From assembly GCA_044892525.1 (NCBI GenBank), contig CM097887.1, forward strand, positions 61,566,001-61,630,000: a stretch of DNA of 64,000 bases. The letters run 5' to 3'. Each line of letters opens with the position of its first letter. The stretch's first letter is position 1. The position numbers were made by a program, and so were the translations under genes. Below are positions 27,589 to 36,849 of this stretch, piece by piece. The DNA comes from Schmidtea polychroa. Taxonomy: Eukaryota. The notes below the pieces were generated by a model, which saw only the letters and a list, made by a program, of their open reading frames with translations, had not been told where the DNA came from and did no database searches.

Positions 27589-30255
27589 ATGAATCATAAT
27601 AATAATAATAATTTTATTAAAATATTACCAATTGAATCATATAAAGGAGAACCTGAAAAGTTCGACGATTTTTTCACTGAGATTGCCCAATATGCAGAGG
27701 CATGTGGTTGGACACCAGAAGAGTTGAGAAAAAGAATACCATTATATTTAAAAGGGTATGCGTTACAGGCATACAATAATCTAGCATGTCGAGGAAACGA
27801 TTTTGATGAATTAGTTCAGAATTTAAGAGAGGAAATTGTGATTGATAGTGATCTACAGAAAATAAACGTGCAGAAGTTTAGAAATAGATTTCAGAATCCA
27901 AGAGAATCAGTAGGCGAATACGTATATAAAATAACTGACTTAGCGAAACGAGTTGAAGCAATACAAAGAGATAGATTTAGTTCATCAATAGACGCGATTG
28001 AAATCTAAAAGCCAATGGAGGCAAAACCTGAATTGAGAATTAAGGATGACAACATCCCTTGGGAGGAGATGAAGCAACTATATTTGAATTATGTCAAAAA
28101 TAGACAAAAATTTAGTCCGAGTCCGAATAGAAGTCAATCACCTGAAAACAGGAGAAGGTTTGATAGTCCGATAAACAGAGATTTCGGGAACCGAAATAAT
28201 GTTAACTATAGAGACAGTCGTTCTGACTATAACAGAAATAATTTTGATGCGAGAGATAGTAGAGACAGTCGTTCTGACTATAACAGAAATAATTTTGATG
28301 CGAGAGACAATAGAAACAGTCGTTCTGATTATAACAGAAATAATTTTATAGACAATCGTTTTGAGAATAATAGAAATAATCGTTATGAGAATAATAGAGA
28401 TAATAGAAATCAAAGAAATAGACAAGCGAGTCCATTTAAACAAAGTTTATACAGAGAGAGGCGAGCAAGCCCTTATAATAATGATGGAAGAGATAGAGTA
28501 AATTTCCAAGGACAAATTAAATGTTATAACTGCCAGAAATATGGTCATTTAGCTAAAGTATGTAATAATCCGAGGAGTGAGTTACCGGATAGAGTAAGAT
28601 TCAAAAATGAGCCTGAAGTTAAACAAATAAAAAGCATGGAAGTTGCATCAGCAAACAATGATATAAATGTGTTGAGAGAGGAATTGAAAGAGTTTAAGAC
28701 TCAATATGAGAGACTTATTGAGAGAAAATTAGAGATGTCGTTAAATGAATTTAAATGCTTTACAAATGAAGTAGATATTGATAATGAGGAAATGAAAGAA
28801 GCTAGAGAAGCCGATGAGAAATTGCTTGCGACAGCAGATAGACAAAGAGAGTTAAAAGATGGGTTACAGGAGACATTAGAGAAGCGACCCTGGGATGATA
28901 ATGAAACATTGAGAGTGATCAATAAAATTCAAGTAGAAGGAATGGATATGGGATATTTGAGAAGTCTAATACCGTTGATGGTAAAGAGACAAGAGGTAAC
29001 ACGAGTATTTGAATTAGAAATAGAGTTAAAAGAGATGATCAAATGTTATGGTGAATATGTGAGAAAAAACCCAAGATTACATGAGTCGATAAAAATAACA
29101 ATTGAGTCAAAGGATCATTGTGTTTTCCAAGTGTTAGAATACCAGATAGGATTGCATATGTGTACGAAGGTAAATAAAGTGAGACAAATGGCAAAGGCAA
29201 AATGGCCTAGAAAAGTTGAAGAGAACGAAGTAATAAAGCTGTATTTTAATGAAGTAGAGTTGATGGATGATGAGTATTTGATAGATTATGGAGTGAACGC
29301 GATAGAGTGTAATACGATTTCGGCTGTAATAAATAATAAAGAAATTCCAGAGATTGAGGAACCAATACCATCAGTGGAGCTGAGTGTAAATGAGGAAACA
29401 GACTACGATAGATTATTTAAACAATGGGATCAATCACCAAGAGAAAGTGCAAGGTCACCATCAGGCAGTGAACTAATTTTTAAGCCTCTGGATAACAAAT
29501 ATGATCATTTGCAAGAAGCGATAGAAAAGATTGCTAAACAAGCACAGATGCAAGAGGCAGAAATCACAAGACGAGGTAGAGGAAGACCTCGCAAGTCGGA
29601 AATAGCTGAAAAATCTGATGATCGAAAGACAGCAGAGCGTTTGAGAGAAATTGCAAATAAAGTGAGATACGAGATTCCAAAGGCTCAAGACAATCACGAG
29701 GATTTAAATATGATAATAGAATTAATTAAAGCAATGAATCAGAAAAGGTTTCCTGAAGCAAAACCAACAGCATTAATTGAAAACATAGTTAACAAAATTA
29801 AACTAATGGAAAAGGAGGTCAGGGAATTGAGCACAGAGGATGTCAATGAGGAGGCAGTATTAAAAATATTGTTCACAACAGGAGTAAACCGAGATAAAGT
29901 GATTACAGCAATGGCATATCTTATATCAAGATATAAGAAAATCATAAGATTAAAACCAAAAGAGCAATTAGAGGAAATAGCAAAGGTAATGTATCAAAAA
30001 CTCAAAATAGATGCAATGCCGTGGATAAAACTAAAAGGGGGTTGGAAAATATGGTTTGATGAAAATATAATAGAAAAATATAAGGAGAGTATAGTCGAAA
30101 ATGTGATCATTGAAGCAAATGATACTGAGGAAACAGTAAAAAGGTTAGTAGACAAAACAACAACAAAACAAGATAAAAATGAAGGAAAATCCAAAGTTTC
30201 AATAATAATATTCATTATAACGTTATTGTTAGATCTGATAAAAGGAAGCAACGCA
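27589..30255 (+). pseudogene. Gag region (capsid, RDN repeats, CCHC knuckle, coiled coil, AT-hook) ending in an internal signal peptide
   Basis: YKGEPEKFDDFF..LYLKGYALQAY (gag CA), CYNCQKYGHLAKVC, RGRGRPRK. In-frame TAA at 28006-28008. Confidence 0.8.
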
Positions 30256-31960
30256 ATAATTGCGTATGATTGTCAAAACCCTAAGTGGGGTCATAAATAT
30301 TCATTATTAGATGTAGAAAATTGCCCAGAAGAAAACCCAACAAAGTTAATTGTTACAAAACCAAAAGTTTTTCATGTTTATCAAGAGTCTGATTTTATAC
30401 ACACCGAAGCAAAGGAGTGTATAGTAAAGTTTTCCGAGGAAAGTTTTGTATGCAATAAAATTGCCAGGACAATACTGACACCAACTTGGGCTCCAGAAGC
30501 CTTAATCGTAGCACCTGGGGAATGGAAAAATGCTTTTAAAACAAAAAAGATTAAAACACCTGATGGAATCGAACTGAACGCTCAAGTGGGAGCACGAGTG
30601 AAATAGTTAATAAACGTTGTCGGGTGGTCATCAACGGGAGGATATTGTGAAGGAGGAAAGTATAAAATATGGGGTCATGTGGCTGAAAATACTGTAGTGA
30701 GAAGACAATATTATGTTGAATTAAGAAAATTCAAGGCATCTTTTGATAGCTCATCAAAGAAAATGATGACGCACAAGTTTTGCACATTGGATGATGCAAG
30801 CTGTGATACAGGAGAATCCATAATAGTGTATAAAATAGACAAATATGAGTGTCAACTTACTAAGTTAAAATCATTAATGTTCCGAACAATTCAAGGAAAG
30901 CAGTTTACTGACGTAGAATCAAAAAAGATAAGAGATCAAAAAAGAAAGACAACAATCATTCAGGAAAAAGATACCCCAACAATATATATATGGCAGAATC
31001 AGAAACAGAAGCAATGAGATTCGTGGGAAAAGGCGAAAGTGTCAAATGTGGGAAAGCAGTTATACAAACTAATTATGAAGGGATCTATATTAGTAGAGAG
31101 GAGATCAAAGAAGCTAAACTAAAGGTCGATAAATTTGATGTTAAACTTTCCTCATATTTCAACAACAAAATTGACTACTTCTATCATCATCAGTTAGTAC
31201 AATTAGATAAAGTGTATCAGGCTACGATTACAAGCGATTGTAAACTCAACAGGGAGATATTGCGAACAAAAATGGCGGTGGCTGTTACGAATCCAGACTT
31301 GATGGCACCAATATTACTTTCAGAAAGAGGAACGTTTGCCAGAGTAGTAGGAGAAGTGATACAAACATTTCAATGTAAACCAGTCAGTGTATCATTAGCA
31401 ACTAATAACCAATGCACTAACGAGCTACCAGTTATTTACAAAGGTGAAACAGTGTATTTACAACCAATAACAAGAATACTCACCGACAAGAATTACGTGC
31501 CAAGGAAAATTGATAAATGCACAAATTTGCTAGATCCATTGTATAAACTAAATGATGAAATGTGGATCACAATGTCGGACAGAAAAGAAGCAACGAAACC
31601 GTTTAAATTAGAACTAGCAGAGCTTGAAAAGAAATTAGAATTCGAAGAAGTTAATGAAATGGATAATAATGGCATGTACACAAGAGAAGCCATAGAAAGT
31701 GCAAGAAAACATATGTTGTTTCCCAACGAAAAAGAAAGGGTATTATCAATAATGGTAAATAAAGTGATTGAAAATAGTTATGGGGGAAATTATAATTTCG
31801 ATGTGTTATTATCAAAAGATCATTTCAAGAAAGTAGTATACCGAGTGTTGTACAGCATATGGGGATATTTTGCAGTCCTCGGAAATATGTTTTCAACCAT
31901 ATTAGGAATATATTACACCGTGGCACTATTAAAAATGATTTGTTCATCATTAGTTTCATT
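30256..31960 (+). pseudogene. Chuvirus-type (class III, gB-like) glycoprotein/env
   Basis: IIAYDC N-terminus after the signal peptide, GWSSTGGYCEGG, CGKAVIQT, GEVIQTFQCKPVSV..CTNELPV..YLQPITRIL, C-terminal TM. In-frame TAG at 30604-30606 and an AT-slip frameshift at ~30985. Confidence 0.75.
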
Positions 31961-35900: not shown

Positions 35901-36849
35901 GATGTCAACAATTTTTCTAACAATTATTGGACTTGTTAATTCAATCGATATTAAATATTTAACAGAATTTATAGGAGATAAAGAGATCCTAATAAACATT
36001 TCGCCATACGAAATCAATGTATTTAACTTAAATAGAATGCCAATAAGGGATTTATACCTAGAAACAACCAATGATACACCAATCAGACTAATGGAGAAAA
36101 GGGAAGAAAGATCCACTAATGAATTCGAAAAAGGGGATATCGTTAAATTTATAAACTTAAAACCCAACACAGAATACACCCTATGTGCACAATGGAACCT
36201 AGAGATGCATACATCACAAATAAAATGTAAAAAAATAACAACACTACAACAAAAAAAGCAGAAAATAACCAAACGAATTAACATAAGTACAATGCTCAAA
36301 ACAACTATGTCAACTACTACCTTAAGCACAACAACTACTCAAAAAACCGTTCAAACAATAACAAGTACAGATGTAACAACTGAGTACAAAACAAGAAAAC
36401 AAGCATATATAAAATTTGTAAGAGCAACACCATGGCAAATAAAGGAAAAAATAAAGTTACCACCGGGAAAACCCGTCGTGATAAGTAATTGGGATGAATT
36501 ACAAGCTTTTCAAACAAAAACACTCAAACCATGTTGGTCCTTTTATGTAATGTCAGCAAGCATCCTAGCAGTAGCAATTCTAGCAATAGCACTAGTATAC
36601 AAATCTACAAAAAATACAAGTGGAAACGGCAGCGGTATCGGCACCGACTGGTCAATAGTATACCAGGGCAGTTTCACTTGGACAGAGATATACCAGGGCA
36701 ATATACAATGTCCACTTGAGTGTAATAATTTCATAAAATGGTCAATAATATTAAATAAAATCACATATATAAATATTTATAAAAAAAGTGCGTATAAGGT
36801 TAAACCCACAATGCGCAATCAATATGTATATTTACATTTCCTTTTTTGA
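35899..36849 (+). CDS. Signal peptide / FN3-like / Thr-rich stalk / TM module fused in frame to the integrase C-terminus
   Basis: Within ORF 35104-36849: MMSTIFLTIIGLVNS, LKPNTEYTLC, TTMSTTTLSTTTT, FYVMSASILAVAILAIALVY. Confidence 0.65.
   Translation: MMSTIFLTIIGLVNSIDIKYLTEFIGDKEILINISPYEINVFNLNRMPIRDLYLETTNDTPIRLMEKREERSTNEFEKGDIVKFINLKPNTEYTLCAQWNLEMHTSQIKCKKITTLQQKKQKITKRINISTMLKTTMSTTTLSTTTTQKTVQTITSTDVTTEYKTRKQAYIKFVRATPWQIKEKIKLPPGKPVVISNWDELQAFQTKTLKPCWSFYVMSASILAVAILAIALVYKSTKNTSGNGSGIGTDWSIVYQGSFTWTEIYQGNIQCPLECNNFIKWSIILNKITYINIYKKSAYKVKPTMRNQYVYLHFLF

Follow-up and report, generated by a model that had tools for sequence, protein, structure and literature searches.

A compact Burro-like Ty3/gypsy element in Schmidtea polychroa with an in-frame envelope gene, and sister copies that encode a single Gag-Env-Pol polyprotein

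The DNA analysed here, referred to as the window, is a stretch of 64,000 nucleotides from Schmidtea polychroa (GenBank assembly GCA_044892525.1, contig CM097887.1, positions 61,566,001 to 61,630,000 of the forward strand), and it carries a long terminal repeat (LTR) retroelement in which an envelope glycoprotein (Env) lies between Gag and protease. With a probability of roughly 0.8, the element belongs to a compact, Burro-like Ty3/gypsy family of the Smed_errantivirus_3 lineage that is present in multiple copies, and it is a young copy that has decayed; its sister copies encode a single-frame polyprotein that would be threaded through the membrane of the endoplasmic reticulum (ER). The sister copies hold the whole domain series in one frame and in one order, Env has a class III fold and evolves under purifying selection, and the element has been copied recently. 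The coding features of the window copy that make up the polyprotein are as follows, RT standing for reverse transcriptase and TM for transmembrane segment.

27589..28563, plus strand: Gag, with a capsid-like domain and one CCHC knuckle (28516-28563); stop at 28006
29773..30045, plus strand: Bcl-2-like domain, BH1-BH2 region (Pfam PF00452, E 2e-5)
30187..30255, plus strand: predicted signal peptide 1 (hydropathy peak 2.0 and sequence)
30256..31850, plus strand: class III (gB/chuvirus-type) ectodomain (Pfam and fold); stop at 30604, slip near 30990
31875..31955, plus strand: predicted Env transmembrane (stop-transfer) segment with basic residues behind it (hydropathy 1.8 and sequence)
31956..32417, plus strand: cytoplasmic tail of Env, then an N/G/Q-rich linker leading to the protease (frame reading)
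32418..35850, plus strand: Pol, comprising protease (DTGA), RT, RNase H and integrase (Pfam); stop at 32511, slips near 33945 and 35118
35881..36597, plus strand: predicted second membrane protein (hydropathy, sequence and model), with signal peptide 2 to 35943, an FN3-like beta-sandwich at 35944-36249, a Ser/Thr-rich stalk and TM2 at 36541-36597

Evidence for the single polyprotein comes from other copies in the genome. Among 40 scored copies, at least 12 were 97-100% identical to the window and 28 formed a sister subfamily at about 77% (77% DNA identity to the window in the probe). The first 20 copies fetched carried breaks at scattered positions and included one frame of 2,945 codons running from the capsid to past the integrase. 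In a genome-wide Env search, 11 of 150 scored matches sat in open frames of 3,051-3,090 codons, counted stop to stop, and in each of the four that were fetched a single frame ran through all 13 landmarks, beginning with the capsid and finishing with TM2. These natural frames agree with the sequence-only reading, which had reconstructed an ancestral Gag-Env-protease-RT-RNase H-integrase-membrane polyprotein of ~3,090 codons and had called for a search for intact copies; such copies do present a single open reading frame (ORF), and no conserved stop divides env from gag or pol. Over 25 copies, four of which had been chosen for being open, the Bcl-2/Env, Env/TM and TM/protease junctions were each open in 24, and at none of the Gag-Env-Pol junctions was a stop or slip conserved across copies.

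The window copy itself is unable to make the full polyprotein. As had been noted from its letters, one frame (28009-30606) contains the zinc knuckle, the hydrophobic stretch and the AYDC motif of Env, another (30912-32513) contains the C-terminal half of Env, its transmembrane segment, the linker and the protease DTGA, and six breaks interrupt the whole: stops at 28006, 30604 and 32511 and slips near 30990, 33945 and 35118. Their attribution to decay holds up, since nearly all are private to the window among its 11 closest copies and sister copies are fully open. The stop positions were open in 11/11 (28006), 11/11 (30604) and 10/11 (32511) of these close copies, and the slip sites differed in length from the window in 11/11 (near 30990), 8/9 (near 33945) and 9/9 (near 35118). 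Programmed recoding that would separate gag, env and pol can draw on one close copy with the same stop at 32511, where an indel lies adjacent, and on another of equal length at the 33945 slip. The remaining scored copies are open or different and complete frames exist, so this explanation was rejected as having a negligible chance of being right.

The placement and nature of Env are supported by several lines of comparison. PF24664 (Monjiviricetes_fusion) was matched by three successive fragments lying between zinc knuckle and protease, at E 4e-7, 6e-3 and 1e-73. The ectodomain of an unaltered sister copy was modelled with 108 homologues, giving a predicted local distance difference test (pLDDT) score of 91.7; searched against the PDB, this model placed herpesvirus gB at the top of the list (E 3e-13, TM-score ~0.46), and against BFVD it placed chuvirus-type glycoproteins there (E 1e-37, TM-score up to 0.78). 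The chuvirus/gB-type class III assignment that had been made from the sequence is supported by structure comparison. Fourteen cysteines are shared by all 15 of the Env ectodomains counted, which are 30-50% identical to one another. The predicted signal peptide 1 has a basic n-region, a hydrophobic core and small residues at -3 and -1. Between subfamilies, Env nonsynonymous divergence (dN) is 0.05-0.07 at a synonymous divergence (dS) above 1, with a dN/dS of 0.03-0.05, the corresponding ratio for RT being 0.05; the Gag spacer, at a dN of 0.19, lies above Env. A secondary insertion of env, raised in the sequence-only reading as a way to fail, was rejected because Env occupies the same site in four diverged families of the genome and in proteins from outside it, and is under purifying selection.

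These figures also bear on the idea that Env is a passenger, that is, a captured viral gene kept open merely so that translation reaches Pol. A stop in Env would indeed cut off Pol, which by itself would select for an open frame, and one fetched copy has an insertion between Env and protease while several carry internal deletions. Such a constraint leaves unexplained both a dN of 0.05-0.07 at saturated dS, below that of the Gag spacer, and the retention of all 14 cysteines at so low an identity; the Env selection figures largely refute this proposal, which we consider very improbable. Comparative evidence argues that Env is an old working part of the element.

Gag was matched weakly in Pfam (PNMA, E 1e-3; Retrotrans_gag, E 3e-3; zf-CCHC, E 4e-4). 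The Bcl-2-like domain, overlooked in the sequence-only reading, stands directly ahead of the Env signal, with ~50 residues between its end and signal peptide 1; a profile search matched it to Bcl-xL at E 3e-5, and its dN/dS is 0.14. After Env, the Pfam order is RVP, RVT_1, RT_RNaseH, Integrase_H2C2 and rve, and the best solved RT match is Ty3 at E 7e-48, compared with 1e-21 for foamy virus. The protease-RT-RNase H-integrase order, the Ty3-type RT, the TG..CA LTRs, the primer-binding site and the 4-bp target duplication are all those of Ty3/gypsy elements (Metaviridae). A conserved spacer lies between protease and RT, which the atlas related to unnamed eukaryotic clusters at 0.97; a dUTPase-like domain was sought in it by Pfam and PDB searches, which returned no match.

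Downstream of the integrase, the predicted second membrane protein, which the sequence-only reading had not picked out as an FN3-like surface protein, combines signal peptide, globular domain, stalk (20 Ser/Thr within 35 residues) and transmembrane segment, an arrangement that recurs in other families and in the outside proteins P0006 and P0007. No match to it was found in Pfam, among PDB sequences or by Foldseek at E ≤0.001; the atlas gave a lead at 0.80, and dN/dS is 0.16-0.35. The model of its globular domain (pLDDT 77) has seven strands, and the structural match lists are dominated by FN3 domains, but only at Z 7.8 and E 7e-3, which makes an FN3 fold likely and does not prove membership of that family. 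All four lineages read share an S/T-x-V ending at the natural C-terminus of the polyprotein, even though the tails are only ~20% identical; the endings read were STWV, STLV/SSLV, ETWV, ETFV and ATLV (from L005, L010, L011, nine sister-subfamily copies, L040, L059, L060, L063, L049 and L055). S/T-x-V is a class I PDZ-binding-type motif.

This ending would suit sorting to cell junctions, and Env and the second membrane protein might act within the animal and form no free virions, by fusing or joining cells or by vesicle budding between touching cells. BURRO1, moreover, is among the transposons expressed in differentiated planarian tissues upon PIWI loss (PMC8532177). The outside relatives P0006 and P0007 lack the S/T-x-V ending, and the gB-type ectodomain, in which 14 cysteines are conserved, would suit a virion spike equally well; spread confined to the animal is on balance unlikely.

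A further coding unit, likewise overlooked in the sequence-only reading, is found inside the LTRs, upstream of the 3' LTR:

36880..38676, plus strand: ORF2, with an ISG20/REXO4-like DEDDh exonuclease domain; true start possibly further upstream

The window's ORF2 (608 codons) on its own had no match in Pfam and was recognised only through sister families, whose ORF2 carries an RNase_T Pfam match; in profile searches ORF2 matched ISG20L2 (E 1e-7) and ISG20 (E 2e-7). Distant families keep the full DEDDh set (L038:7246-8784, L059:2762-4000). In the window family (37500-37950) the motifs are altered and the third is missing, yet the frame is under purifying selection, which makes a pseudo-nuclease possible. 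ORF2 is in a different frame from the polyprotein in 10/10 sister-subfamily copies and lies more than 1 kb downstream of it in another family.

The junction between the two units also corrects the earlier end of the element at 36849, which is not a homologous end: it follows a seventh slip near 36600 that is common to 4/6 scorable close copies, the window counted, and that shifts the tail into the ORF2 frame. In the sub-lineage with this slip after TM2 (window 36600-36880; L001, L004 and L007), ORF2 is in the TM2 frame, with 0 or 1 stop ahead of it at positions that differ per copy. This sub-lineage may have spread in the form of a longer fusion lacking the S/T-x-V end, or may be a passively copied defective line.

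In the mechanism we favour, signal peptide 1 would send Env into the ER lumen and leave Gag and the Bcl-2-like domain tethered on the cytosolic face, and we infer that it would double as the membrane anchor of that domain. The Env transmembrane segment would return the chain to the cytosol, where Pol would hang between the Env tail and signal peptide 2, and the latter would bring the FN3-like protein into the ER to become another surface protein. Signal peptidase would free Env and the FN3-like protein, and the element's protease would cut Gag and Pol. Env would then fuse membranes, the FN3-like protein would likely aid attachment or sorting, and the Bcl-2-like domain would likely delay death of the producing cell; the threaded polyprotein would thus build enveloped particles, ORF2 being supplied from a separate frame. 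Hydropathy, read together with the threading known from viral polyproteins, makes the ER-threaded topology probable, and for the formation of free enveloped particles we would offer even odds. An extended version, in which a two-spike enveloped flatworm virus arises from the double-threaded polyprotein, and the FN3-like protein, whose mucin-like stalk and S/T-x-V end recur from the compact families to giant Burro, acts as attachment and sorting partner of the fusogen and steers budding to PDZ-organised cell surfaces, is put forward tentatively as an unlikely proposal. Herpes gB needs partner glycoproteins.

Several observations weigh against this account. The window's own subfamily was fully open in 0/12 copies (its protease-RT stretch was open in 5/10 and its integrase-tail stretch in 3/9, with scattered breaks), and full-length frames are known only from the sister subfamily at 77% DNA identity. 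The signal peptides and transmembrane segments were called from hydropathy and motifs only, and the core of signal 1 carries an Asp near its end. In the folded Env ectodomain, N-glycosylation sequons number 0 where 3.2 would be expected, which is slightly odd for a lumenal domain, and 14/15 polyprotein-type ectodomains carry fewer than expected. The PF00452 match falls under the Pfam curated cut-off, the BH1 motif is unlike that of Bcl-xL, and the Z of 7.8 for the FN3-like domain is middling. Finally, capsid assembly in Ty3/gypsy elements needs far more Gag than Pol, and a supply of Gag that only equals that of Pol and Env would serve capsid building poorly. As side observations on glycosylation, the ectodomains of L016, L034, L038 and L048 and of 11 outside proteins contain 0-3 sequons, and stand-alone Env homologues with zero sequons numbered 0/79.

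The last objection touches the proposal, made from the sequence, of a fixed Gag:Env:Pol ratio, which we regard as doubtful. The single frame may be real and the ratio still not fixed, if splicing or shortening of the RNA supplied extra Gag or if surplus Pol and Env were degraded after translation; copia and Tf1 are precedents for such routes. Besides the Gag excess required for assembly, the position of ORF2, out of frame or more than 1 kb downstream, means that some second expression route must exist. The Gag-Env-Pol junctions, with neither conserved stop nor slip, argue the other way. The chance of such an unequal output falls a little short of even, and it is compatible with the threaded single polyprotein, of which it would alter the ratio alone.

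The limits of the element were redrawn. An earlier start near 26600 is replaced by 20271, and the element ends at 39770; the Ty3/gypsy element measures 13.5 kb excluding a nested insertion and spans 20271-39770 of the window, where the copy is flanked by the 4-bp target duplication TTTG. Its boundary features are these.

20267..20270, plus strand: left target-site duplication TTTG, with the right copy at 39771-39774
20271..20649, plus strand: 5' LTR, part one, beginning with TG; 98.7% identical to 38681-39059
20650..26601, minus strand: nested TG..CA insertion of 5,952 bp with its own 4-bp duplication, splitting the 5' LTR
26602..27317, plus strand: 5' LTR, part two, ending with CA; 99.2% identical to 39054-39770
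27320..27337, plus strand: primer-binding site, starting with TGG 2 nt past the LTR (sequence; the same in 4/4 sister copies)
38681..39770, plus strand: 3' LTR of 1,090 bp, TG..CA (LTR comparison)

Target duplications of 4 bp and TG..CA LTRs were also present in 4/4 sister copies checked. The insertion of the window element is young, because its LTRs differ by 9 mismatches over ~1,090 aligned bases. An exact pattern search for the primer tRNA returned 0 matches. No more than 63 candidates were scored in the tRNA search, the three loci scanned for a primer match were Lys and Arg, and no matching tRNA was found. The nested insertion is foreign to its host element and probably represents the solo LTR of one of the giant Burro-type elements: at both termini it is 80-89% identical to the ends of their ~5.3-kb LTRs, in the reverse orientation. 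Short ORFs of 157-178 aa on its minus strand recur in its other copies and had no match in Pfam, and related stretches lie at 46626-51343 (minus), 51118-56816 (plus) and 57397-58199 (minus).

With regard to known systems, the organisation, which had been proposed as new, was already published. Arkhipova and Yushenova (2019) presented the Burro polyprotein as the first to carry env in frame, placed after BCL2 and ahead of the protease; its env matches arthropod and fish mononegavirus glycoproteins, and accessory ORFs lie downstream (PMC6431247). Chary and Hayashi reported GAG-ENV-POL gypsy elements with gB-type Env in nematodes, bryozoans and flatworms, six of them in S. mediterranea (PMC13524379). 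One of these, Smed_errantivirus_3 of Schmidtea mediterranea, has the same gene order and gB-type Env as the window element, and its Env domain I-II is ~86% identical to the window by eye (~181/210 residues). Its region measures 14.5 kb, which, if 3-kb flanks are included, leaves a coding span of ~8.5 kb, near that of the window; it is given with 3 copies and no listed primer tRNA, and GAG, ENV and POL are treated as ORFs (PMC13524379). The main text of that paper makes no mention of a polyprotein, single ORF, Bcl, fibronectin, exonuclease or Burro, and its figures and sequence deposits may show more.

The window element shares several properties of the HSV/gB-type GAG-ENV-POL errantiviruses, namely env between gag and pol, a class III ectodomain flanked by a predicted signal and transmembrane segment, multiple similar open copies and, by the by-eye Env comparison only, kinship to the Platyhelminthes C1a group. 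It also shares with Burro (GYPSM1) the succession of BCL2, in-frame env and protease. It differs from Burro in size (13.5 kb, LTR of 1.1 kb and ~3,050 codons, versus >30 kb, ~5 kb and 4,873) and in its CCHC knuckles (one versus three), and Pfam scans of the window element and a sister copy found no MATH, ubiquitin-like, ankyrin or BIR domain, so that on giant size and cargo it falls outside Burro in the strict sense. Compared with giant elements of the same genome, identity is 35-51% in Env and 52% in RT; an RT tree groups the window with these Burro-type giants at support 98/95, using two env-less outgroups, both long branches, with published Burro and errantivirus sequences left out. The giants share with the compact families the transmembrane segment plus T-x-V end. 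The same layout occurs in two further compact families, in the giant MATH/ankyrin/BIR elements and in the outside proteins P0006, P0007, P0019 and P0021; outside proteins with Env in this place also carry RT and integrase. We would class the element as a compact Burro-like GAG-ENV-POL errantivirus.

As for the giant elements themselves (L048-L050, L053-L056 and L042-L044), they carry three CCHC knuckles, MATH, ubiquitin-like, Env and ankyrin domains, followed by TRAF-zinc-finger and BIR-RING ORFs, and the genome contains at least 150 BIR matches. One outside homologue is labelled as a protein of a bacterial metagenome-assembled genome and probably reflects eukaryotic DNA sorted into a metagenome bin.

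More distant likenesses are also found. Anakin, a BEL/Pao element (PMC7642597), has a glycoprotein of the same superfamily, PF24664, whereas the window element is Ty3/gypsy by its RT. LTR elements of bdelloid rotifers (PMC5408684) resemble it in having a DEDD-family exonuclease ORF after pol; their ORF3 is of the DEDDy type, whereas ORF2 here is ISG20-like DEDDh, stands alongside env and has altered motifs. Identity with Troyka was rejected, as Troyka has CG termini and 3-bp duplications (PMC12440569). Neither the second membrane protein with its S/T-x-V end (in the literature searched, with most subscription journals, Repbase, figures and bioRxiv supplements outside its scope) nor compact families presented as single frames with that protein and an exonuclease frame (in the texts searched, with figures, Repbase and Grohme 2018 outside) was found.

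Elsewhere in the window, a Polinton/Maverick-type element with long inverted ends occupies 2960-17733 and includes the following features.

4486-5778: double jelly-roll capsid
5802-7217: integrase with a phospholipase A2-like domain
7235-8080, minus strand: A32 packaging ATPase
12605-16908, minus strand: polymerase-like ORFs, for which no polymerase match was found in Pfam

An ankyrin-repeat ORF (42407-43057) and an SR-protein-like ORF with an RNA-recognition motif (RRM; 59761-60297) are probably host genes or retrocopies.

Taken together, the headline layout was already known and the window copy adds little alone; it does tie the planarian GAG-ENV-POL errantiviruses and the Burro polyprotein together, as one clade with one predicted topology. 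If the proposed mechanism is true, this would be an LTR retroelement with a flavivirus-like, membrane-threaded polyprotein, in which Pol is tethered between two surface proteins. Since the sister families are young, numerous and hosted by a tractable animal, the Gag:Pol ratio, the topology and cell-to-cell spread are approachable by existing RNA and tissue methods.

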